Origin: Escherichia coli
GTDB lineage: Bacteria; Pseudomonadota; Gammaproteobacteria; Enterobacterales; Enterobacteriaceae
NCBI RefSeq assembly: GCF_003334355.1
Contig: NZ_QOWP01000010.1
Length of the DNA stretch: 64,000 nt
Reading direction: 5' to 3' (one strand)
The notes beneath the pieces are model-generated. The model searched no databases, had not been told where the DNA came from, and saw only the letters and a program-made list of their open reading frames with translations. The translations under genes and the position numbers were made by a program. Below, piece after piece: positions 26,483 to 38,454 of the stretch (position 1 is its first letter; each line of letters begins with the position of its first letter).

Positions 26483-27781
26483 ATGAAAGCGATCTTAATC
26501 CCATTTTTATCTCTTCTGATTCCGTTAACCCCGCAATCTGCATTCGCTCAGAGTGAGCCGGAGCTGAAGCTGGAAAGTGTGGTGATTGTCAGTCGTCATG
26601 GTGTGCGTGCTCCAACCAAGGCCACGCAACTGATGCAGGATGTCACCCCAGACGCATGGCCAACCTGGCCAGTAAAACTGGGTTGGCTGACACCGCGCGG
26701 TGGTGAGCTAATCGCCTATCTCGGACATTACCAACGCCAGCGTCTGGTAGCCGACGGATTGCTGGCGAAAAAGGGCTGCCCGCAGTCTGGTCAGGTCGCG
26801 ATTATTGCTGATGTCGACGAGCGTACCCGTAAAACAGGCGAAGCCTTCGCCGCCGGGCTGGCACCTGACTGTGCAATAACCGTACATACCCAGGCAGATA
26901 CGTCCAGTCCCGATCCGTTATTTAATCCTCTAAAAACTGGCGTTTGCCAACTGGATAACGCGAACGTGACTGACGCGATCCTCAGCAGGGCAGGAGGGTC
27001 AATTGCTGACTTTACCGGGCATCGGCAAACGGCGTTTCGCGAACTGGAACGGGTGCTTAATTTTCCGCAATCAAACTTGTGCCTTAAACGTGAGAAACAG
27101 GACGAAAGCTGTTCATTAACGCAGGCATTACCATCGGAACTCAAGGTGAGCGCCGACAATGTCTCATTAACCGGTGCGGTAAGCCTCGCATCAATGCTGA
27201 CGGAGATATTTCTCCTGCAACAAGCACAGGGAATGCCGGAGCCGGGGTGGGGAAGGATCACCGATTCACACCAGTGGAACACCTTGCTAAGTTTGCATAA
27301 CGCGCAATTTTATTTGCTACAACGCACGCCAGAGGTTGCCCGCAGCCGCGCCACCCCGTTATTAGATTTGATCAAGACAGCGTTGACGCCCCATCCACCG
27401 CAAAAACAGGCGTATGGTGTGACATTACCCACTTCAGTGCTGTTTATCGCCGGACACGATACTAATCTGGCAAATCTCGGCGGCGCACTGGAGCTCAACT
27501 GGACGCTTCCCGGTCAGCCGGATAACACGCCGCCAGGTGGTGAACTGGTGTTTGAACGCTGGCGTCGGCTAAGCGATAACAGCCAGTGGATTCAGGTTTC
27601 GCTGGTCTTCCAGACTTTACAGCAGATGCGTGATAAAACGCCGCTGTCATTAAATACGCCGCCCGGAGAGGTGAAACTGACCCTGGCAGGATGTGAAGAG
27701 CGAAATGCGCAGGGCATGTGTTCGTTGGCAGGTTTTACGCAAATCGTGAATGAAGCACGCATACCGGCGTGCAGTTTGTAA
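26483..27781 (+). CDS. appA: Periplasmic acid phosphatase/phytase AppA (432 aa)
   Basis: ATG at 26483 (MKAILIPFLSLLIPLTPQSAFA signal peptide) and histidine acid phosphatase RHGVRAP motif. Confidence 0.94.
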   Translation: MKAILIPFLSLLIPLTPQSAFAQSEPELKLESVVIVSRHGVRAPTKATQLMQDVTPDAWPTWPVKLGWLTPRGGELIAYLGHYQRQRLVADGLLAKKGCPQSGQVAIIADVDERTRKTGEAFAAGLAPDCAITVHTQADTSSPDPLFNPLKTGVCQLDNANVTDAILSRAGGSIADFTGHRQTAFRELERVLNFPQSNLCLKREKQDESCSLTQALPSELKVSADNVSLTGAVSLASMLTEIFLLQQAQGMPEPGWGRITDSHQWNTLLSLHNAQFYLLQRTPEVARSRATPLLDLIKTALTPHPPQKQAYGVTLPTSVLFIAGHDTNLANLGGALELNWTLPGQPDNTPPGGELVFERWRRLSDNSQWIQVSLVFQTLQQMRDKTPLSLNTPPGEVKLTLAGCEERNAQGMCSLAGFTQIVNEARIPACSL

Positions 27782-27792
27782 TGCATAAAAAA

Positions 27793-27818
27793 GAGCATTC
27801 AGTTACCTGAATGCTCTG
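27793..27818. terminator. Terminator hairpin between convergent appA and etk (intrinsic for the minus-strand gfc-etp-etk transcript)
   Basis: Inverted repeat agagcattcag/ctgaatgctct; the U-tract is on the minus strand only (aaaaaa at 27787-27792). Confidence 0.65.
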
Positions 27819-27850
27819 AGGCTGATGACAAACGAAGAACTGTCTAATGC

Positions 27851-27887
27851 GTAGACCGGAAAAGGCGTTCACGCCGCATCCGGCCAC
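27851..27887. repeat. REP element
   Basis: gtagaccggaaaaggcgttcacgccgcatccggccac, REP-family palindrome. Confidence 0.7.
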
Positions 27888-27895
27888 TTTCAGTT

Positions 27896-30076
27896 TTACT
27901 CTTTCTCGGAGTAACTATAACCGTAATAGTTATAGCCGTAACTGTAAGCGGTGCTGGCGCGTTTAATCACACCATTGAGGATAGCGCCTTTAATATTGAC
28001 GCCTGCCTGTTCCAGACGCTGCATTGACAAACTCACCTCTTTGGCGGTGTTCAAGCCAAAACGCGCAACCAGCAGGCTGGTGCCAACAGAACGCCCCACG
28101 ACCGCGGCATCACTCACCGCCAGCATCGGCGGCGTATCGACAATCACCAGATCGTAATGGTCGTTCGCCCATTCCAGTAATTGACGCATCCGATCGCGCA
28201 TCAGCAGTTCAGACGGGTTAGGTGGCACCTGACCGCGAGTAATCACATCAAAGCCTCCTTTGCCAAAATGCTGGATCACTTTGTTGAGCTCATCTTTACC
28301 TGCCAGATATTCCGACAAGCCATGTTCATTACTCACGGTAAACAGGTTATGCGAATAACCACGGCGTAAGTCGGCATCAATAAATAACACTTTTTGATCG
28401 GACTGGGCGATCACCGCTGCCAGAGTTGAACTGACAAACGTTTTACCACCGTCTGGCGTCGCACCGGTGATCATCAGAATGTTATTCTCCGTCTCCATCA
28501 TAGCGAAATGCAGACTGGTTCGTAGCGCACGTACGGCTTCCACAGCAGAATCCGCCGGGTTATCCGCCGCCAGGAAGGGGATATTTTTAGTACGATGGCG
28601 CTGCTGATTAGAAAATAAATTTTTCTTACGCAGACGGGTGCGTTTATCCAGCCACTCGGACATTGGGATAGTGGCATAAACGCTGATGCCGTGCTCTTCC
28701 AGTTGTTCCGGGGCTTCTACACCACGACGCAACATCGCACGCGCCAGCACGGCACCCACAGAAATAAACAGGCCAAGAATAAAACCAAGCACCACGTTCA
28801 ACGCTTTTTTCGGTTTCACTGGCTGCGGCTGAGTGACTGCCGGGTCGATAATCCGCACGTTACCAATGGCACTGGATTTCGAAATACTCAACTCCTGCTG
28901 GCGGTTAAGTAATTGCAGATATACCGCACGGCCCGCTTCTACGTCACGACTTAAACGCAACACTTCCTGTTGGGTGGAAGGCATTGCCGATACCCGCTTA
29001 TTCAGGCGTTTGCGTTCTTGCTCCAGCGTCTGGCGTTTTTCCAGCAGCGCACGATAAGTTGGGTGATCTTTCTTATACAGCTGGGAGATCTCTGCCTCGC
29101 GGAAGGTCAGCTCATTGAGTTGATTATCAACGTTCACAATCTGCTCAAGAACGGCTTTGGCTTCCAGGTTAAGGTCAACCGAATCGCGCTGCTGGCGATA
29201 AACGTTGAGTTTTTCTTCCGCTTGGTCCAGCTCGCTGCGCACTTCAGGTAACTGGCGCTGTAAGAATTCAAGGCTTTGTGAATCCTGCGCCGCCTGGCGA
29301 GCGATATTCTGTTGCAAATAGTTGTTAGCGATGCTGTTCAGAATACGAGTAATCAACTGGGGATCATCACCAGTCATGGTAAGTTCCAGCATCCCGCTTT
29401 CTTTACTGCGTTCGCTAACGGTAAAGGTTTCCTGCAATGCGTTAATCGCTTCCAGTTCGGTACGCTGGCTCAGGACAAACTGTGTTCCTGGTTTGGCCTT
29501 AATGTCCGCGATAGTCAGCGCAACGCCATCTTTTTCCAGACGCTGGCCGACCATACCATTGACGGTGAACTCTTCACCTTCCAGTGTATAGTGGCCGTTT
29601 TCCCCAACCGTGAGTGTCAGTTGCTGATCCTGACCATTCAGTTGTGGAATATGCATCCAGCTGATCGCCAGCTCACCTGGTTTTTCTTTGGTTAATCTCG
29701 CCCAGCCGCGACCCACAATCGGAAAATACTTCTGCTCAACTATGTCGCGCAGATTCAGTTCAGCAATGGTTTTACCGAGAATCATGCGCGATTGCAGCAG
29801 TTGGATCTCCGGTGCAGACTCGGGCGATGAGTTAGGGATCATATCGCTCAGGCCGCTGAGAATGGCGTTGCCCTGTTTTTGCTCAACCTGGACCAGAGTA
29901 TCTGCCTGATAAATTGGTGTGCTTAACAGCGAGTAAGCGACAGCGATCAGCGTGAATAACGCGGTCACGCTGATAATAAACTTACGGTGATCCCATAACT
30001 CGCCGACCAGACGAAGCAGATCGATCTCATTTTCCTGAGTGCTGCCTGGTGGCGTATTCATATTTTTAGTTGTCAT
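27896..30076 (-). CDS. etk: BY-kinase tyrosine autokinase Etk (726 aa), group 4 capsule/polysaccharide co-polymerase
   Basis: Full-length ORF; two transmembrane segments, Walker A/B ATPase domain and C-terminal tyrosine cluster YSYGYNYYGYSYSEKE. Confidence 0.94.
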   Translation of the reverse strand: MTTKNMNTPPGSTQENEIDLLRLVGELWDHRKFIISVTALFTLIAVAYSLLSTPIYQADTLVQVEQKQGNAILSGLSDMIPNSSPESAPEIQLLQSRMILGKTIAELNLRDIVEQKYFPIVGRGWARLTKEKPGELAISWMHIPQLNGQDQQLTLTVGENGHYTLEGEEFTVNGMVGQRLEKDGVALTIADIKAKPGTQFVLSQRTELEAINALQETFTVSERSKESGMLELTMTGDDPQLITRILNSIANNYLQQNIARQAAQDSQSLEFLQRQLPEVRSELDQAEEKLNVYRQQRDSVDLNLEAKAVLEQIVNVDNQLNELTFREAEISQLYKKDHPTYRALLEKRQTLEQERKRLNKRVSAMPSTQQEVLRLSRDVEAGRAVYLQLLNRQQELSISKSSAIGNVRIIDPAVTQPQPVKPKKALNVVLGFILGLFISVGAVLARAMLRRGVEAPEQLEEHGISVYATIPMSEWLDKRTRLRKKNLFSNQQRHRTKNIPFLAADNPADSAVEAVRALRTSLHFAMMETENNILMITGATPDGGKTFVSSTLAAVIAQSDQKVLFIDADLRRGYSHNLFTVSNEHGLSEYLAGKDELNKVIQHFGKGGFDVITRGQVPPNPSELLMRDRMRQLLEWANDHYDLVIVDTPPMLAVSDAAVVGRSVGTSLLVARFGLNTAKEVSLSMQRLEQAGVNIKGAILNGVIKRASTAYSYGYNYYGYSYSEKE

Positions 30077-30095
30077 CGTATTTTATAAACTCAAA

Positions 30096-30542
30096 TTACC
30101 GGCTGAGGCGCTTCGCCCATTCCTGACTGGCGCGCTCCAACATACCGTAGACATGTTCAAATGCGTCCTGACTTTTACGATAGGGATCCGGGATCTCTTT
30201 CTGTTCCAGCCATTGCCCAAACAGCATTGTCTTCCCGCGGACCTCGGGAGCAATTGCGGTAACCTGAGCAATATGTTCCGACTCCATTGCCAGAATCAGA
30301 TCGTAATTTCGTGCCATCTCAGCAGTGAGCTTACGTCCGGCATGTCCTTCAAGAGATACGCCATGATTAGCGGCAACATCTGCCGCTGTCGCATCTGCAG
30401 GGTGTTTTACCAGACCATGAACACCTGCCGATTTGACTTTTACGCCCGGCAGACGTTTACGCAGCAAGCGCTCGCCAATGGGCGAACGGCAAATGTTGCC
30501 GGTACAAACCACCAGGATTGAGTTAAATTTTAGTTGGGCCAT
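30096..30542 (-). CDS. etp: Low-molecular-weight protein-tyrosine phosphatase Etp (148 aa)
   Basis: Internal Met [27 protein letters not shown] (CX5R P-loop) of track ORF 30096..30554. Confidence 0.92.
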
Positions 30543-31669
30543 GTTTGAATCCACCGTGAAGTCTCTGTCAGGTCATGCACCCCGGAAATCGTCGGTACCA
30601 GCAGAGAAATCACACGGTTCCAACGAGCCAGCGGCGCGGTAGTGACATAAACAATGTCGTAAGGTTCAAGCTGGAATTCCGTTCCGAGTATCATTGCCGA
30701 TGCGTCCTTCGCATTCAGCTGATAAATATTGGCGATTTTGCCATTCTGCTTGTTTTGCGTTGCACGAATAACAAAAATCCCCGTCGCATCAGCGACATCC
30801 TGATTCATACCCTCAGCGTTACCCAGCGCTTCCGCCAGGGTCATACCGCTGCGGTCCATTTTCAGCGTGCTCTGTTTACCCACTTCACCCATCACGAAGA
30901 CTTTCAGATCATCGTTGCGCGGAATAAATAAAATATCGCCCGGGTGCAGCAGTTTGTTCTGGCGCAAGTCGCCACGCTGCATCAGCGCATAGAGGTTCAC
31001 TTTGGTCTTTACGCCATTCTGGGTGAGCACCACGTTGCGCCAGTCTGCATCTGCGGTCAGACCGCCCGCGGCGTTAATCGCATCCATGATGGTCAGAGGA
31101 ATATTGGTAATCGGCTGCTGACCCGATTTGCTGACTTCGCCGGTGACGTACGCTTTTTGCGATCGGAACGCCGCGACGCTGACATCGACTTGCGGGCTTT
31201 CAATGACTGAATCGAGACGCGCTGTAATCTCGTTGCGTACCTGGGTAAGTGTTTTCCCGGCCACTTTCAGGCGACCAATATAGGGGTAGAAAATCGCACC
31301 ATCGGCGTTAACCCAGTTGCCGGTATCACTGGCGCTACGGTATTGCCCTGCGGGGGTGGTTAGTTCCGGGTGATCCCAGACCGTAACCATCAACACATCA
31401 CCAATCCCGATACGATATTCATAGTTTGCGATTTGCTGCTCCAGCTCCGGGTTAGCCTGCGACATAATCGGTTTGGCGCGCAACTGATCAATCAATCCTG
31501 GCGTGACGGGATAGATATTGACCATTTTGTCCAGGTCATACTGATTGTCAGGTAGTTCAATGACATCCTTGTTACTGGTCGATAAATTCTGACCAGGAAC
31601 AAGGGTACATGCTGTCAAAGACAGAACAGCCAATGTCAGTACCGAAAACTTAAAAATGTTCTTTTTCAT
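30530..31669 (-). CDS. gfcE: Outer-membrane polysaccharide export lipoprotein GfcE (Wza paralogue, 379 aa)
   Basis: Internal Met [21 protein letters not shown] (lipobox) of track ORF 30530..31690; 3' end overlaps etp start by 13 bp. Confidence 0.92.
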
Positions 31670-31714
31670 TGGTTTATATTTATCAGTCAATGTAATGTTA
31701 TGAATTACGTCAGG

Positions 31715-33811
31715 TTATTGTCCAACCGGTACTTCTCGCTCTGCCGTCATTGGATAGAGCTGGTATTTGCGTGACAGCATTTGTCCACCATCACGCGTCA
31801 ATGGTGTCCACGAAACCACCGCGCGGTTGCGGTTAGGTCCAATGGTCATCAAGTCGAATGGAATCGAGATATAAAAACCTTTACTAAAGCCGCCTTCGCC
31901 GTAGTCATCTTTAGATACGTTACTGATTGCCGCCCATATCCCTACCGCCACGCCGCTGTCAAAGCGTTTGGCGACGTCGATCGTTGCGCCTTTATCTTTT
32001 GCCAGATATTGCCCAACGCTAAGTTTCATCAGTACGCCATTGAGCGTCGGCGGGTTCCAGTAAGCCGTCACGAAACCTGTTGGCGTGGAATAATCGGTGA
32101 AACGCATCATGTTGTCCCAGTCACGTTGCTTCACGTAGTTAACGTCCACACCCAGCGCCCAGCAGGCATCTAGCGGGCGATAAAGCAGCTCGGAACCGAC
32201 ACCGGCGTACATCGTTTCCAGATAACCGCCATACACCTGGCCATAGAAACCATTGCCTAAGTCAGCAAAATAGTTCGCCTGCAAGTTGTTGAGATAAACG
32301 TCATTGCGAACGTAGTCACGGATATGCGTGCGCACGCGGGGCAGGGTAGAGTCCGCGGGCAACAGCGAAGACTTAAACTTGTCGTAGTTGTTGTAAATAT
32401 TGGTGAAAATACCGCCATCAAGCAGCAGGTGGTCGGTAAACCAGTAGCGGGCACTGGACATCAGCCCCAGCTGGAACATATAGAAATCTTCCGGGCCGCC
32501 CAGCGACTGTGAAAGTGTTGGGTTGAAAGAGTAGCTAAAGCGATCTTCACGAATACGGTAGCCCCGACCAAAGGCAGAAAGATCTTCTGCTTCAACACGT
32601 TGTTGTTGAAGTTGCTCTGATTGACCAGGCGCTGTACCAGCCAGCTGTTTGCGCAGGCTGGCTACGTCGGTTTCGGTAGTCACCATCGCCATATGCTCGC
32701 GCTTTTGCGTCACGCTAATCTTCTCAACGCCTTGCGGCAGGTTATTCACCAGAATCCGGTTGGCACGATCGACCGCTTCGCGAGAATCACGGTATTTGTA
32801 TTGTTGACCAGACATATACAGCGTCTTATCGCGCAGCTGAATTTCCGGTGCTTCAAAACCTGCGTTGTACTTCAGCGCGGTAAGTTGGTTCGCTACTGTG
32901 GTGTACTGCAATCCTTCAGATTCAGGCGCAGGTTGATATGCCGGTTTTGGCGTATCGCGCAGGGCAGGGCGCAGATCGTTGAAATTGGTCCGTAACGTGA
33001 AGCCAAACATCAACGCGTTACCGCGTTCATAACTCAGGTTGAGATCTGCCCAGCTGGCAGCGCGATAAACTGCGCCGACGTTGAAATGGCTTGCCTGAGG
33101 CAGTTTGCCAGCGAAATCATTCTGGTAATTGTTGCCATCGTATTCGAGTTTCAGACGCAGGGGATTCCACGGCGTTTGATACTCAATGCCGCCAAAGATG
33201 GAAGCCGGGCCACGAAAGATATCGCTAAAGCTGATATCGCCCGCATCGTGAGACTCTGCGCGATGACAATATTTATCGCTCACCCGGCAAAACGGGTTGG
33301 TAATATTGCCCGCATTACCGGCGTAGCCCCATGCCATCCCGAGGGTGAAATCAAATGGCCCCGCTTGCTTGCTGGCCACCAGATACTCACCTTCAAACAG
33401 ACCCGTACCAGCAATATCACGTTTACCAAACGCCACTTGCGGTAGCCAGTAACCTTCTTCCCACAGGCGAAGTTTAAAATCGAATGATTTGTCTTTGTAT
33501 GACTGATCGCCGCTGAAATCTTCCCACTGGCTATATTTGCGTGTGCGCACATCCGTATAACGAATGGTGCCTTCCAGCCATGGGAACAGCGCCACGGAGG
33601 TGGAGTAGAACCGGTATTGATCGTTATCCCGGTAGTTGACGCTGAATTCACCTTCCGGTGCGATGCGCGCATTTGGCATCTGCAACAATCCTGTGCCGCC
33701 AAAGTCTGATTGCGACGAACCCAGCGGATCCGGGTAGGTTAATACTTCAGCATGACAGGCACTGGAGACGGCAATGGCCAGGCAGCTTAAAAGATAAGAA
33801 TTCTTCTTCAT
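31715..33811 (-). CDS. gfcD: Outer-membrane beta-barrel protein GfcD (698 aa)
   Basis: Full-length ORF with signal peptide and aromatic-rich C-terminus. Confidence 0.9.
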
Positions 33812-34557
33812 CAGTCAGGAACACGTTGCGTTAAAACAGACACAATCTGGTCATTTAAATCAGCATATTTTTCGGGCAGTACATGCGCAGAAAAGCCCAA
33901 CCAAAGCTGGCTGCCAGGCGGTGGTTCCACATGTCTTTTATTCCACAGGGCAACAGGGGCGACGACAGTCTCACCCTCAGGCGTAATCACCATAACGTTA
34001 TTCTTGTCCGCGCCTGCAAGGCGGGGGTGATCTTGCAGATAATCGGTAACGCTACGGCCTGCCTGCCAGGGCAATTGCCCGGCCCCAGAAACCGCACCCA
34101 GCAGAGTAATAGTCACCGGACGCTGTACGGTATAGAGCGTATAGTCCCCGACCAACGGGGGATTGCTGTTCTCATCCACTCGTACAAAATCAGGGTCCAG
34201 TTTGACCGGTAAGCGACCAGTGATATTGAGATTGAGTAACTGCTGGCGCACGGATTTAATCGTTGCCGCCACATCGTCGTCAGCTTCTGCTTCCCAGGAA
34301 GCAAGCTGTGCCATGACATGTTGGTAGTCTTTAAGCGCTTTAGCTTTCGCCGCAGAGTCGGTCAGCAAGGCACCAGGCCACCAGAGGCGATCGCGCAGTT
34401 GCGGTTGTGTCACCAACTGGACAACATTTTCCATGGGGCCAACGGAAAGTGTCTGTTGTTCGCCAGGCAGATAAATAGTCACCGTTCCTTGCGCAAAGGC
34501 ATGGGGTGTCATTACGTAAAGTACGCTGGCAATGAAATACGACTGTAATTTATTCAT
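33811..34557 (-). CDS. gfcC: Periplasmic protein GfcC (248 aa)
   Basis: Full-length ORF with signal peptide; 1-bp overlap with gfcD. Confidence 0.9.
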
Positions 34558-35198
34558 GGTGCGGGTTTAAGAAACGTCATTTCTACGGGAATAACCCCTG
34601 CGCCTAACATTTGCCGACTTTGACGAACCTGGCCAGTAGCCGAATCGACCCAGAATGTGTTTTGCCACTGTTTTTCTGGCCGCGTGGAAGTCACCTCTTC
34701 CTGCCAGACATTACACAGCACATTACGACCCGCAATATTCAGCGTCTCTAATCCAGCAAAGGAAAAAGTAGAACTCAGGGTCGCAGAGCGAAAATGGTTG
34801 TCTTCACTCCAGAGAATATCGCGCGTCCAGCGGCTGCCATCTTTTATTGCCAGCGCGTTACGCAGAGGGTCCTGCCCGGAATTTGTCACTTCCAGCAGAT
34901 TATTATTAAGTTTGACGGTTTTTAAAAGACGTCCATTGTGGGTAACCAGCATGGCGTTATCCTGGGATAACCATTTGCTTTGTTCTTGTTCTATATATCC
35001 CAGTACCACAAAGATTCGTTGCCCTTCATTAAGGCGTAAATACATAGTGGAATAAGGCAACGCCTGGATCTGCTGATCCGCTACGGTGATATCCTGATTA
35101 TCGAAAAGGCTGGCGCGAAATGTATCGACCATACTTTGCTGGCTGTGCGTACATCCCGCAAGAAATAGTGCGAAAATCGATAAAATAAGAGGGCGCAC
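34554..35198 (-). CDS. gfcB: Lipoprotein GfcB (214 aa)
   Basis: Full-length ORF with lipobox LAGC; ATGA overlap with gfcC. Confidence 0.9.
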   Translation of the reverse strand: MRPLILSIFALFLAGCTHSQQSMVDTFRASLFDNQDITVADQQIQALPYSTMYLRLNEGQRIFVVLGYIEQEQSKWLSQDNAMLVTHNGRLLKTVKLNNNLLEVTNSGQDPLRNALAIKDGSRWTRDILWSEDNHFRSATLSSTFSFAGLETLNIAGRNVLCNVWQEEVTSTRPEKQWQNTFWVDSATGQVRQSRQMLGAGVIPVEMTFLKPAP

Positions 35199-35304
35199 CT
35201 TTAATCCTTGAAAGGTTAATTAAAAAAATGCAAATCTCTAAAGCCCGGTACGAATATCGCAACCGGGTATCATTTAACTTTAATTTCGACGCGTTAAAGC
35301 AGTA

Positions 35305-35613
35305 TTAGCGTGTAGTGGACGTGGTGGTTGAGGTGTTATGAGAACCGCCATCGCCACTGTCATTTGCTGCAACAACTGCCAACGTCGCCACACCAACAGC
35401 CGTTGCCACACCGACAACTGTCGCCGTGCCGACAGCGCCAGCAGCCACGCCACCAGTGGTAGTAGCAGCAGTCGTGGTTGCGCCGGTAGTGGTCGTTGTG
35501 GTGCCAGTAGTACCCGTCGTTGCATCGGTCCCGTTTGTTGCTTCAGGGGCAGCAAACGCAGCTGGCGTCGTCAACATGAAGGCCATAAGGATTGCAGAAA
35601 GCTTGTGTTTCAT
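35305..35613 (-). CDS. gfcA: Thr/Ala/Gly-rich small secreted protein GfcA (101 aa)
   Basis: Internal Met MKHKLSAILMAFMLTTPAAFA of track ORF 35305..35631; low-complexity TTGTTGTTTTTTGATTTAATTTGG core. Confidence 0.88.
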   Translation of the reverse strand: MKHKLSAILMAFMLTTPAAFAAPEATNGTDATTGTTGTTTTTTGATTTAATTTGGVAAGAVGTATVVGVATAVGVATLAVVAANDSGDGGSHNTSTTTSTTR

Positions 35614-36054
35614 AACTTTTCCTTTATTCATCGCATGGACAATACGTACGCTTGAGATCAGGATTGTCTACTTTGAGTATAACATCCTTGTGAAATCTCC
35701 CTTTCCTCATACCGCTTGCACTATATACTGCGGGTAGGAAAGGCGCGCAGAGGGAAATATAAGATTGTTAACTATCCCCCTCTGGAAATACGACTTGTGA
35801 GCATAAGATAAATCTTAGCAAAATACGAATTAAAGATAAGGAAATTGTTACGAAAGCTATTAATTATTGTTGGTAATATAGTTTTAAGTGGTACTATAAC
35901 TGGCTGTTAAATGGCATTTATAACTATTAGGTGCAGAGATATTCGCTTAAATGGATTAGTTTCTTTGTGGAAAAGTAACTGATGTTATAATGTATGATGT
36001 TGACTATTGCACTATTCCAATAAAACCAGTCAGCTTTAAACAAGCAGCGTCATA

Positions 36055-36267
36055 TTAAGAGAGATAAACATTTGCCGCTGTTGGTCCTCGCAGGCCATTT
36101 ACGCGGCAAAATTCCACACGTAATCCTGGTATAAGCACTTCTGCGTCGCGGGGAGTGAATGCGGAAATATGGACCTGAACTTCTTTACGACCGTCGGAGG
36201 GGATAATGAATCCTTTGCCGCTTTTGCGATCAAAGGTTTTGACAATTCCTGTCATTTTACGGGACAA
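36055..36267 (-). CDS. cspH: CspA-family cold-shock-like protein CspH (70 aa)
   Basis: Full-length cold-shock domain [40 protein letters not shown]. Confidence 0.92.
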
Positions 36268-36552
36268 ACAAATTCCTTACTGAAAATACTGCGCTGCACT
36301 ATACGGGGTTAATAAAATAAAGCCAGCGATATTTAAGACCGCCGGACGGCTAAAATAAAATTTGCTTAATCTCAATTATCATGCGTTAATAGCTGCGTCG
36401 GTTTGAAAGACAGACAGCATACAAAGTAGTTTACTAAAGCAGTTCTCATTATCAGGCATTATCCCCTTCTTTTGAGTCTCTCTCCTGAACACTAAGTAGT
36501 TTCTGTATTAAAGCCCTGTTTGCCGAAAGGCCCAAAATGAAGGAAGTAAAAT

Positions 36553-36765
36553 ATGTCTAATAAAATGACTGGTTTAGTAAAATGGTTTAACGCAGATAAA
36601 GGTTTTGGCTTTATCACTCCTGATGATGGCAGCAAAGACGTTTTCGTCCATTTCACCGCCATCCAGAGCAATGAATTCCGCACGCTGAACGAAAATCAGA
36701 AAGTTGAATTTTCTATTGAGCAGGGGCAACGTGGCCCCGCGGCAGCGAACGTTGTTACGCTCTAA
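36553..36765 (+). CDS. cspG: Cold-shock protein CspG (70 aa)
   Basis: Full-length cold-shock domain [41 protein letters not shown] with RNP motifs. Confidence 0.95.
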
Positions 36766-36964
36766 GGTTGCCATTATTACTCAACATCTCCATTTCCGCT
36801 GTCCATGTTGTCATGGTTCACAGTACCGCACATCGGCATTCGATGTGACGGAGCGAAACCCTTTGGGCGCTAAGTGTATTTTTTGTAAATCGACGATGAT
36901 CACCTTTGATAACGTCGCGCTGCAAATACGCACTGACCATGCGCCGCTGGATTTCACAAAATAA
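36704..36964 (+). CDS. ymcF: Small Cys-rich ORF overlapping the cspG 3' end (ymcF-like); true start uncertain (no in-frame ATG; TTG at 36704/36752, GTG at 36731)
   Basis: Open frame 36704..36964 encoding ...[32 protein letters not shown]... (paired Cys motifs); position matches the small gene annotated between cspG and ymcE in E. coli. Confidence 0.45.
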
Positions 36965-37169
36965 TATCAGGCTCCCTCGTGGAGCCTTTTTTATATCTGC
37001 CTTATTTTTCTTCAACGCTGTATGTATAGTAAGCGATAACCTGTTGATTATTGAATCTTTCGGGGAGATGGCTTATAACATTTCTTACCTGACCAGGGTA
37101 CCGGGAACCAACACCTTACTGGCGTGTTGCTGTCTTTTAAGACCAGAAGAGGTTAACAGTGAATATTGA
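36939..37169 (+). CDS. ymcE: Small membrane protein YmcE/Sfa (76 aa)
   Basis: ATG at 36939 ([33 protein letters not shown]...); track ORF begins at an upstream TTG. Confidence 0.8.
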   Translation: MRRWISQNNIRLPRGAFFISALFFFNAVCIVSDNLLIIESFGEMAYNISYLTRVPGTNTLLACCCLLRPEEVNSEY

Positions 37170-37332
37170 AGAGTTAAAAAAACAAGCCGAAACGGAAATC
37201 GCCGACTTTATCGCGCAAAAAATCGCCGAGCTGAACAAGAATACAGGGAAAGAAGTCTCTGAAATTCGCTTCACCGCACGAGAAAAAATGACCGGGCTTG
37301 AAAGTTATGATGTCAAAATCAAAATAATGTGA
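37159..37332 (+). CDS. gnsA: GnsA (57 aa)
   Basis: GTG start at 37159 overlapping the ymcE 3' end; translation MNIEELKKQAETEIADFIAQKIAELNKNTGKEVSEIRFTAREKMTGLESYDVKIKIM; not in the ORF track (under 60 codons). Confidence 0.8.
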   Translation: MNIEELKKQAETEIADFIAQKIAELNKNTGKEVSEIRFTAREKMTGLESYDVKIKIM

Positions 37333-37338
37333 TTTTGT

Positions 37339-37366
37339 GAACATCACCCCGTGCGAGGTGATGTTC
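37339..37366. terminator. Hairpin between convergent gnsA and yccM (probable terminator)
   Basis: Inverted repeat gaacatcacc/ggtgatgttc; weak U-tract. Confidence 0.45.
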
Positions 37367-37380
37367 CGCTTGTTGCTAAT

Positions 37381-38454
37381 TTAGTGACCAATCATTGGCG
37401 CTTGTGGAATTAAGCGTCGGTACAATTCCTCCGGCACCGGGCTTTGCCATACTCCCGCATACATTGCGTAACCAATCACCGCGAACATAATCCCCAGAAC
37501 CAGTAGCGTCATTAACCAGCCAGACAACGCAAAAGCTTTTTTATTTGCCGCAGGTTTTTGCAGTGAAAAGGTCAATGTTGAAGCTACCGGACATGACTCT
37601 ACGCAAGTCATACAGCCGGTACATTCCACTGTTCGTACCTGAATTAATTTATCTACCGGGATCCGTGATGGGCAATTTTTTGCGCATTTGCCACAGCCGA
37701 TACAACTTTCGGCATTGCGACGAATCTTAAACGGCGATAATAGCGAAACCACGCCCATCAGCGCGCCATATGGGCAAAGATAACGACACCAGGCATGGCG
37801 AATAAACAGGCTGGCAATCAGCAAAACGGTCACGCTGATTAATGTCGCGGTCCCCATATAACGAAAGAAATCGAGCATTTTAACGTCCATCACCACGCTG
37901 TAGGGCGACAACATAAAATAGTGAATCGCCTGAGCGGGCATCAATAACGCGATATAGAGAAAAAAACTCAACAGCAAATACTTTACACCGCGCAGAGGAA
38001 TATCCAGCCAGCGGGGAAGGACACATTGCCGACCAAACAGTTTGTTACCGAGATCGCCGATTAATTCAGAAAGCGTACCAACCGGGCATAACCATGAGCA
38101 AAAGGCCTTTTTGAGTAATAGACTGATGACGATAAAAGCGACCAATAACAGCATCGCGGCGGCGTGGACGGACGGTAACTGACCTGTTGTAAGGCTATAT
38201 TTCAGATTCATCAGACCGGCAATCGGTAGCCAGCCTTCGATACCTCCCGGTCTGGCGACAAATGTCGTGCTACTTGCCGTTTCGTAATAGCGCACCCAAT
38301 ACCAGAACGTGATGGCAATATAAATATTCATTGCCAACAGTAATAATTGCGTCGCTTTACGCCAGGTCGTGGCATTGCGCCAGTCATTCCACGGTAATTT
38401 GCCGCCCGTCGTGCCTGGCCGCCGCTGCCAGCGGGTTCTTTTTTTCTCTGCCAT
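37381..38454 (-). CDS. yccM: Membrane-bound 4Fe-4S ferredoxin-type protein YccM (357 aa)
   Basis: Full-length ORF with transmembrane helices and CxxCxxC motifs (CIGCGKCAKNCP, CTGCMTCVESCP). Confidence 0.9.
   Translation of the reverse strand: MAEKKRTRWQRRPGTTGGKLPWNDWRNATTWRKATQLLLLAMNIYIAITFWYWVRYYETASSTTFVARPGGIEGWLPIAGLMNLKYSLTTGQLPSVHAAAMLLLVAFIVISLLLKKAFCSWLCPVGTLSELIGDLGNKLFGRQCVLPRWLDIPLRGVKYLLLSFFLYIALLMPAQAIHYFMLSPYSVVMDVKMLDFFRYMGTATLISVTVLLIASLFIRHAWCRYLCPYGALMGVVSLLSPFKIRRNAESCIGCGKCAKNCPSRIPVDKLIQVRTVECTGCMTCVESCPVASTLTFSLQKPAANKKAFALSGWLMTLLVLGIMFAVIGYAMYAGVWQSPVPEELYRRLIPQAPMIGH

Follow-up and report, generated by a model that had tools for sequence, protein, structure and literature searches.

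The AT-rich cspH / cspG-ymcF / gnsA interval of Escherichia coli as a cold-adaptation cluster with a cspA-type thermometer leader and a proposed origin from fused phage cassettes

Overview of the interval

A 64,000-nucleotide stretch of Escherichia coli DNA (assembly GCF_003334355.1, contig NZ_QOWP01000010.1), referred to below as the window, was analysed with a focus on the interval 35632-37380. It comprises a cold-adaptation cluster already annotated in Escherichia, cspH / cspG-ymcF / (ymcE) gnsA, together with the upstream region of the neighbouring gfc operon. The best explanation found for it, which is regarded as probable, is a cold-adaptation cluster that carries a cspA-type RNA thermometer and that arose from phage DNA by the fusion of two cargo cassettes. 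A fuller version is put forward tentatively, in which cspG would be a hybrid of the cspB-type and cspI-type cargo genes of a Qin-like prophage, the cluster would be the last domesticated fragment of that prophage, and ymcE would represent the promoter and leader of gnsA. All the genes, the RNA thermometer family and the phage paralogues treated here are already annotated and partly well studied, and the interval is no new system. What the analysis adds is of a historical or corrective kind and concerns the mosaic ancestry proposed for cspG, the decayed ymcE frame and what STnc220 is. The literature search found no published proposal of a hybrid origin for cspG.

A 2.3-kb query around the interval showed 99.7% identity to K-12 and matched 5419 of the 5426 complete E. 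coli genomes. The gene layout was carried over from the RefSeq annotation of near-identical genomes, and the features of the interval and its borders are as follows.

35305-35610, minus strand: gfcA (RefSeq transfer)
35611-36054, no strand: gfcA-cspH spacer of 444 nucleotides, GC 0.351; upstream/promoter region of the gfc (group 4 capsule) operon, 3' of cspH
36055-36267, minus strand: cspH, divergent cold-shock-domain paralogue with a TTG start (RefSeq homologues, NCBIfam)
36268-36552, no strand: cspH-cspG intergenic region, 285 nucleotides
36268-36396, no strand: divergent promoter region (putative promoter assignments)
36397-36552, plus strand: cspG 5' untranslated leader, 156 nucleotides (Rfam RF01766)
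36553-36765, plus strand: cspG, cold-inducible CspA-family RNA chaperone (NCBIfam)
36553-36673, plus strand: putative cspB-type/cspI-type crossover interval, nucleotides 1-121 of the cspG coding sequence (best estimate nucleotides 72-121)
36776-36964, plus strand: ymcF, 62 amino acids, annotated ATT start, beginning 10 nucleotides past the cspG stop (RefSeq)
36969-36992, plus strand: intrinsic terminator, 7-bp GC-rich stem and T run (terminator scan)
36939-37169, plus strand: ymcE open reading frame (ORF), 76 amino acids, overlapping ymcF and gnsA and spanning the terminator
37040-37158, plus strand: putative gnsA promoter and leader block (alignment of six Escherichia sequences)
37159-37332, plus strand: gnsA, 57 amino acids, GTG start (RefSeq, PDB, PHROG)
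37381-38454, minus strand: yccM (RefSeq transfer)

An earlier reading made from the sequence alone (the sequence-only reading) had described divergent cold-shock paralogues and small overlapping ORFs, and this layout agrees with both: cspH (minus strand) and cspG (plus strand) are separated by exactly 285 nucleotides, and ymcF (36776-36964), ymcE (36939-37169) and gnsA (37159-37332) overlap in succession.

Mosaic structure of cspG

BLAST and sliding identity showed that the two parts of the cluster correspond to separate phage cassettes. The segment 36059-36667, which runs from cspH across the intergenic region and the leader into the first ~115 nucleotides of cspG, was 76% identical to the cspF-cspB cassette and unrelated to the DNA upstream of cspI. 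The segments 36553-36996 (cspG, ymcF and the terminator) and 37140-37319 (gnsA) were 72-76% identical to the cspI-type cassette and unrelated to the DNA downstream of cspB. The gene cspG is accordingly described as a mosaic: its 5' flank, with promoter, leader and the adjacent cspH, is of the cspF-cspB type, and the 3' two-thirds of the gene, ymcF and gnsA are of the cspI-ynfQ-gnsB type.

The csp leaders fell into a G/B class with 76-86% internal identity and an I class with 77-88% internal identity, the latter including a chromosomal Salmonella gene, and identity between the classes was 42-58%. The cspG leader belonged to the B class, with 76-81% identity to cspB leaders against 49-58% to the cspI class. 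A four-taxon (four-point) bootstrap of cspG, cspB and cspI, with cspA as the fourth sequence, grouped cspG with cspB in the upstream 200 nucleotides (80%) and with cspI in nucleotides 73-210 of the coding sequence (96%) and in the downstream 200 nucleotides (97%). Type-diagnostic sites in cspG were distributed as 4:1 (B:I) before nucleotide 72 of the coding sequence and as 2:10 after nucleotide 121. Within a single phage, cspB and cspI form direct repeats separated by 2.9-3.5 kb, and their coding sequences have identical stretches of 17-26 nucleotides in common within nucleotides 1-95. Both halves of the cluster are similarly diverged from the phage copies (72-76% nucleotide identity), which is consistent with a single event.

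Phage relatives and distribution of the cluster

Two cargo cassettes were recognised in lambdoid phages. The first, cspF (minus strand) and cspB (plus strand), lies between the Q antiterminator and the holin, and the second, consisting of a cspI-type csp gene, ynfQ, a 76-amino-acid ORF and gnsB, lies between Rz and the terminase. Both occur in the lambdoid phages 2H10, mEp460 and others, in the Qin prophage of K-12 and in Citrobacter prophages. The fused cspH/cspG-ymcF-gnsA arrangement was found in 0 of 50,697 phage records.

A scan with YccM, covering one genome per species, returned 43 enterobacterial-type loci. All five representatives of Escherichia species (E. coli E69, E. whittamii, Escherichia sp. 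E1V33, E. albertii and E. coli SCPM-O-B-8794) had the cluster beside yccM, against none of the 38 other YccM loci. The cbpA-cbpM-yccM synteny was kept in Citrobacter, with no csp gene within 10 kb. Conservation of the cluster at this locus across the enterobacteria was thus not seen (0 of 38 non-Escherichia YccM loci), and the horizontal acquisition that had been suspected from the sequence is supported by the restriction of the locus to Escherichia, the low GC content at third codon positions (GC3) and the phage cargo homologues of both halves. Within E. coli the islet is not variable: 5419 of the 5426 complete genomes carry the cluster. On the outer sides, cspH is bordered by appA or by the gfc spacer, and 48 nucleotides separate gnsA from yccM.

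Base composition

The conspicuous AT-richness noted in the sequence-only reading was borne out, with a GC content of 0.412 for 35632-37380 against 0.516 for the window (z = -2.7). A sliding-window analysis of the whole stretch showed that 2.2% of equal-length windows reach a GC content as low, so composition is not uniform. The flanks also differed as described, with GC values of 0.575 for gfcA, 0.488 for yccM and ~0.53-0.55 for the torS region. Non-coding DNA made up ~45% of the interval. The longest and most AT-rich non-coding block was 35611-36054 (GC 0.351, down to 0.28 in 200-nucleotide windows), which lies downstream of cspH and upstream of gfcA and is no cspH leader.

The GC3 of the 37 long ORFs of the window was 0.577 +/- 0.07, and that of the core cspA gene was 0.55. 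The cluster genes had values of 0.39-0.48, i.e. 1.4-2.7 standard deviations below the long ORFs of the window, while the paralogues in the Qin prophage had values of 0.24-0.42. This gradient, with phage below cluster and cluster below host, is the pattern expected from partial amelioration of phage-derived DNA. Three additive causes would account for the AT-richness: regulatory non-coding DNA (45%), the AT-rich nature of csp loci in general and a partly ameliorated phage ancestry.

The sole other low-GC cluster of the window was found at 47.8-51.6 kb. The lowest GC content of the whole window (33-37%) was recorded at 48868-50666, which is a stronger compositional outlier than the csp cluster. 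It contains an ORF at 49127-50008 (GC3 0.27) and, directly after it, an ORF at 50024-50374; the two resemble a split gene of the yccE type located between cbpA and agp.

Proposed origin and alternative explanations

The ancestor of the cluster would have been the late region of a Qin-like lambdoid prophage with the order Q-[cspF/cspB]-lysis genes-[cspI-ynfQ-ORF-gnsB]. Homologous recombination in the first ~100 nucleotides of the two directly repeated csp genes, with loss of the ~3 kb lysis cassette, would have produced a hybrid cspG and brought cspH next to ymcF and gnsA. The rest of the prophage would then have been lost and the remnant fixed before the Escherichia species diverged. Phage ancestry is the firmest part of this proposal and is considered likely, slightly more so than the explanation as a whole, while the specific deletion-fusion event is proposed with less assurance, somewhat short of an even chance.

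Several observations weigh against this origin. The maximum chi-square breakpoint test inside the cspG coding sequence gave permutation p values of 0.06-0.14, so the mosaic rests on the flanks. The B-like N-terminal residues A14, D15 and D24 of CspG are also present in CspA and may therefore be ancestral states and no evidence of recombination. The flanks contain no residual phage genes or attachment-site scars, phage homology being confined to 36059-36996 and 37140-37319, and no phage counterpart was found for the segment 36997-37139; with no prophage remnant in the flanks, at least two further clean deletions have to be assumed. In Salmonella, Kosakonia and Klebsiella, csp-ymcF pairs also occur on the chromosome with no accompanying phage genes, and some of the cluster could therefore descend from chromosomal and not from phage DNA. 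Low GC alone is weak evidence of foreign origin, because the core cspA locus has an overall GC content of 42.1% (41% in the leader and 48% in the coding sequence), and cspH to gnsA is similar at 42.8%. E. fergusonii was not recovered in the YccM scan, and a statement about all Escherichia would therefore be too wide.

The direction of transfer may also be reversed. The fused chromosomal form would then be ancestral and the cluster the donor, with no prophage relic involved, and lambdoid phages would have captured pieces of it twice: a cspH-like gene with the 5' part of cspG, completed later by a cspA-like 3' end to give cspF/cspB, and the coding part of cspG together with ymcF and gnsA, which came under a new leader to become the cspI cassette. 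Such a history fits with the lack of any prophage structural or regulatory gene beside the cluster, with the occurrence of the csp-ymcF pair on the chromosomes of several genera, and with the grouping of the 3' half of cspB with cspA (GI/BA topology), which is compatible with a cspA-derived replacement. A review also holds the csp genes of Qin to be prophage acquisitions by horizontal transfer. It would, however, require two independent captures with breakpoints in the same ~100 nucleotides of one small gene, against one recombination in the deletion-fusion proposal. The I-class unit (leader, I-type coding sequence, ymcF and terminator) holds together on Salmonella chromosomes as well as in several prophages, and in no case does a cspH-like gene stand beside it. 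Both the Q-holin slot and the Rz-terminase slot lie inside the prophage and are not where aberrant excision takes up host DNA; moreover, the GC3 of the cluster lies between those of phage and host, as expected for movement from phage to host, and the cluster is limited to one genus at the yccM locus. The donor role of the cluster is considered unlikely.

A still less probable explanation is that no special acquisition took place and that the interval is an ordinary csp locus, AT-rich because such loci combine small genes with extended AT-rich promoters bearing UP elements and with long structured leaders, and derived from an old chromosomal duplication within the CspA family. The classical view of the csp family is indeed one of expansion by multiple gene duplication (Yamanaka et al. 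1998, as represented in a paper citing it). The similar GC content of the cspA locus and of cspH to gnsA agrees with this, as does the 45% non-coding share of the interval in a window whose other gene-poor stretches (without a long ORF) have 37-47% GC. Every cluster gene nevertheless has a GC3 below those of cspA and of the long ORFs of the window, the cluster is absent beside yccM outside Escherichia, and the closest relatives of cspH, of the leader and of gnsA are phage-borne. The phage-derived, fused-cassette origin is preferred to both alternatives.

Promoter, leader and RNA thermometer of cspG

The presence of a regulatory RNA in the 285-bp divergent region, which ORF calling would not capture, had been suspected from the sequence, and it was found to be the cspA thermoregulator. 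The RF01766 match extended over 36397-36819 on the plus strand with 159.3 bits (gathering threshold 78) and covered model positions 1-428 of 428. Since model position 1 falls at 36397, transcription of cspG would start near this position, with a leader of 156 nucleotides. Long leaders had been claimed upstream of both csp genes; this held for cspG (~156 nucleotides, 36397-36552) but not for cspH, where a leader of ~25 nucleotides of no cspA type is predicted.

The cspG leader contained a cold box at 36404-36414 (15 of 19 nucleotides identical to that of cspA), the upstream-box hairpin GCCGAAAGGC at 36522-36531, which is identical in cspA, and a Shine-Dalgarno sequence at 36539-36546. The hairpin reads GCCGAAAGGC in cspA, cspB and cspG and GCCCAAGGGC in all cspI-type leaders (loci L087, L091 and L094); the change from GCCGAAAGGC to GCCCAAGGGC is compensatory and keeps the stem.

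A candidate cspG promoter was assigned by homology with cspA. It consists of an AT-rich UP-like tract (36352-36362), a -35 element TTGCTT (36362-36367) and, after a 17-nucleotide spacer, an extended -10 element TGcGTTAAT (36382-36390). A consensus promoter scan picked up neither this putative promoter nor any gnsA promoter. The promoter region 36268-36396 shared conserved blocks with the cspF-cspB intergenic region of phages and was 89-95% identical among Escherichia species. Comparison with five other Escherichia species gave 99-100% identity for the cspG leader and 87-98% for the cspG coding sequence; a leader that is near-invariant while the coding sequence varies points to strong selection on the RNA itself.

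The folding energy of the cspG leader was not unusual (z = -0.09). In equilibrium (partition-function) folding at 37, 25 and 10 °C the Shine-Dalgarno sequence and AUG of cspG stayed closed, and so did those of the cspA positive control; because the series misses the thermosensor in the control, the method is no valid test of a thermometer. The gene cspG, probably with ymcF, would be driven from a cspA-type promoter with an AT-rich UP-like tract, and by analogy with the cspA mRNA-thermometer family its 156-nucleotide leader would provide stability and translatability in the cold. The gene is counted among the cold-shock-inducible csp genes (Nakashima et al. 1996, as reported in a citing paper).

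The cspG-ymcF transcript, its terminator and STnc220

CspG matched its NCBIfam equivalog with 179.2 bits (cut-off 144). The ymcF gene encodes a 62-amino-acid protein with two CxxC pairs. Pfam PF23641 (YmcF-like) was present on all 120 listed YmcF homologues, and the family is spread through the Enterobacteriaceae; the assignment was read from these homologues. A search with PHROG and NCBIfam hidden Markov models gave no match for the YmcF of the window. The protein was 66% identical to YnfQ of Qin and 76-77% identical to its homologues in Citrobacter prophages and on Salmonella chromosomes. The adjacency of csp and ymcF was also seen in Salmonella, Kosakonia and prophages.

The terminator stem (36969-36992) was invariant across Escherichia, with variation in the loop alone. 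The poor fit of the 3' hairpin of RF01766 inside ymcF and the clean terminator after ymcF together suggest a bicistronic cold-shock transcript. It is thus predicted that ymcF is probably co-transcribed with cspG and that the transcript ends at 36969-36992.

A weak match to the Rfam family STnc220 (34 bits, gathering threshold 60) was obtained at 36922-37002, covering the 3' end of ymcF and the terminator. The genuine Salmonella STnc220 (105.8 bits; locus L091, 6147-6225) occupies exactly the corresponding position, following the ymcF gene in a csp-ymcF pair next to umuDC. The position in Salmonella and the E. coli match identify STnc220 as the 3' tail of the csp-ymcF mRNA, and on these sequence comparisons the 3' end of ymcF with the terminator is the E. 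coli counterpart of Salmonella STnc220. One Salmonella match that was followed as the STnc220 locus turned out to be cspA, and the right locus was reached via the YmcF homologue.

Two tandem ATT codons (36773-36778) were observed at the start of ymcF, 8-11 nucleotides after an AAGG, and the ymcF homologues of Qin, the Citrobacter prophage and Salmonella also begin with ATT. A conserved non-canonical ATT start in a cold-shock transcript may be regulatory. In Klebsiella (loci L095 and L096, 3350-4189) the ymcF homologue lies 435 nucleotides 3' of the called csp gene rather than the usual 10, a gap which points to a second csp gene, uncalled or decayed, between the two.

cspH

CspH matched its NCBIfam equivalog (NF007378/NF012008 being the pair for CspG/CspH) with 176.1 bits against a cut-off of 141, and it was 77% identical in amino acids and 76% identical in nucleotides to the prophage cspF. 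The Rfam search gave no match on the cspH strand and hence no cspA-type leader. The best candidate -10 box, TATAGT (36298-36303, minus strand), is conserved with the prophage cspF and would leave a leader of ~25 nucleotides. A short leader agrees with the literature, in which cspG is cold-inducible and cspH is not; cspH is reported to be expressed at 37 °C and induced 20-fold by azidothymidine (AZT).

ymcE and gnsA

YmcE matched its NCBIfam equivalog with 187 bits, above the cut-off. In each of the representatives of five other Escherichia species, its ORF had either lost the start codon or acquired frameshifts or stops, and an indel hot spot was seen in the alignment at 37096-37105. The gnsA gene was intact and 93-100% conserved across Escherichia. 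The DNA of 37040-37158 was nearly invariant in six Escherichia sequences and contained a candidate gnsA promoter (TTGAAT-17-TATAAC, 37051-37079) and a Shine-Dalgarno sequence GAGG at 37149. The folding energy of this block was unremarkable (z = +0.84), and no homology to the DNA upstream of phage gnsB was found for 37040-37158. From its conservation and motifs, the block is put forward as the putative promoter and leader of gnsA, and ymcE is probably not a conserved protein-coding gene. Homology of ymcE to the phage 76-amino-acid ORF at the same place was considered and rejected (17% identity).

GnsA matched PDB entries 4xo1/4xo2 ("Protein GnsA", E = 1e-31) and, over its full length, the phage protein family PHROG 2301 (116 bits). 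It was 65% identical to GnsB of Qin, and PF08178 was present on its homologues in prophage loci. Over-expression of gnsA is reported in the literature to raise the content of unsaturated fatty acids, which fits a cold-adaptation module; with its own conserved upstream block, gnsA would raise membrane unsaturated fatty acids.

The ymcE-gnsA pair is listed among the type II toxin-antitoxin systems of E. coli in the literature, and the RefSeq name of GnsA is "GnsA/GnsB family addiction module toxin". A conserved antitoxin role of YmcE is doubtful, since its frame is broken in other species while gnsA is intact, the phage ORF at this place is unrelated and the ymcE frame spans a terminator.

The gfc spacer, its variable neighbour and H-NS

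The match of the query starts exactly at the cspH stop codon in about one third of the complete E. coli genomes. The segment missing there corresponds to 27773-36053 (8281 bp, GC 0.50) and comprises etk-etp-gfcEDCBA and the 444-nucleotide AT-rich spacer. In a gfc-less genome appA runs directly into cspH and overlaps its 3' end by 13 nucleotides; the C-terminus of appA reads …IPACALHQDK in gfc-less genomes and …IPACSL otherwise. The variable element at this locus within E. coli is the gfc-etp-etk operon with its spacer, and the csp cluster is core.

The gfcA-proximal ~290 nucleotides of the spacer were conserved with E. albertii, and the cspH-proximal ~150 nucleotides were not. K-12 and its derivatives carry the insertion sequence (IS) IS1D in the spacer, with a 9-bp target duplication at 35638-35646, 28-36 nucleotides upstream of the gfcA ATG, and this element is absent from the present strain. 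Strain PI24 carries IS5 in the same gfcA-cspH spacer, which is thus a repeated IS target. Two adjacent inverted repeats were found 90-175 nucleotides upstream of gfcA, at 35700-35743 (arms CCTTTCCT/AGGAAAGG) and 35748-35784 (arms CAGAGGGAAATA/TATCCCCCTCTG). E. albertii retains the two repeats, the second of them as a perfect 11-bp stem, and they may form a gfc leader structure or a protein-binding site.

The proposal of the sequence-only reading that the interval is a xenogeneic island under H-NS transcriptional silencing is the least probable of the explanations and is given very little credence. High AT content and an Escherichia-only distribution at the locus are both present, the core 35700-36000 has 28-36% GC, a range preferred by H-NS, and the gfcA-cspH spacer has received IS1 in K-12 and IS5 in PI24. 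H-NS represses cspA transcription at 37 °C according to PMC4877382, and this makes action on a related promoter plausible. On the other side, the high-affinity H-NS motif TCGATAAATT (at most 2 mismatches) occurred in the window about as often as expected (63 matches, expectation 57), and only two matches, each with 2 mismatches, fell in the interval. A genomic SELEX (systematic evolution of ligands by exponential enrichment) table lists the gfcA spacer without an H-NS flag, for K-12, where IS1 splits the spacer, and a full-text literature search found no H-NS binding data for cspH, cspG, gfcA or ymcE. The genes are expressed and regulated, cspG by cold and cspH at 37 °C and by AZT, which makes silencing of the csp genes unlikely. 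Strong purifying selection acts on the leader, the cluster belongs to the E. coli core, and the most AT-rich block is part of the gfc operon and not of the csp genes. Being the most AT-rich part and a repeated IS target, the gfc upstream spacer would be a more plausible H-NS substrate than the csp genes.

On the other side of the cluster, yccM stands directly beside cbpM-cbpA, without tor genes, in Citrobacter sedlakii (L039) and at loci L012, L017 and L031, with yccA 5.6 kb away on the other side. In view of the Citrobacter order, the yccA-yccM interval of E. coli (hya, app, gfc and csp) and the tor cluster are lineage-specific fillings of this region.

Implications

If the mosaic holds, repeated cargo genes of a prophage would have recombined with each other and so reduced it to its useful cargo, and phages would have been the source of part of the cold-shock response of E. 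coli. The AT-rich signal obtains a concrete explanation in regulatory DNA and in phage ancestry that is partly ameliorated. Because the ymcE frame has decayed outside E. coli, the toxin-antitoxin pair given in reviews and models is called into question.

Comparison with known systems

The cspG leader resembles the cspA thermoregulator in its length of ~156 nucleotides directly 5' of a CspA-family gene, its 5'-end cold box, its GCCGAAAGGC hairpin and a score twice the gathering threshold. It differs in being only ~59% identical to the cspA leader, its closest relatives being the prophage cspB leaders (76-81%). The terminator right after the coding sequence of cspA is not conserved either, and the 3' hairpin of the model aligns poorly inside ymcF.

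The Salmonella csp-ymcF/STnc220 pair shows ~76% nucleotide identity from nucleotide 10 of the cspG coding sequence through ymcF and the terminator, with the same 10-nucleotide spacing between csp and ymcF and a terminator hairpin after ymcF. Unlike cspG, the Salmonella csp gene is fully I-type, with an I-class leader and an I-type N-terminal sequence, and the pair lies at a different locus without a cspH-like or gnsA-like neighbour.

The ymcE-gnsA pair is similar to type II toxin-antitoxin pairs in consisting of two small overlapping genes on one strand. An antitoxin gene would be expected to be conserved along with its toxin gene, whereas ymcE is not conserved with gnsA, and the phage gnsB is preceded by an unrelated ORF.

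The cassettes of Qin and other lambdoid phages share with the E. coli cluster the same genes, order and orientation, with 72-76% nucleotide and 65-79% amino-acid identity. The phage cassettes are separated by 2.9-3.5 kb of DNA that holds the holin, lysozyme and Rz genes, whereas in the E. coli cluster their counterparts are fused via one hybrid csp gene. The ynfR/ynfN-type ORFs of the phages are replaced in the cluster by an unrelated 140-nucleotide segment with the ymcE ORF, and the cluster differs further from the phage copies in having no flanking phage genes and a higher GC3.

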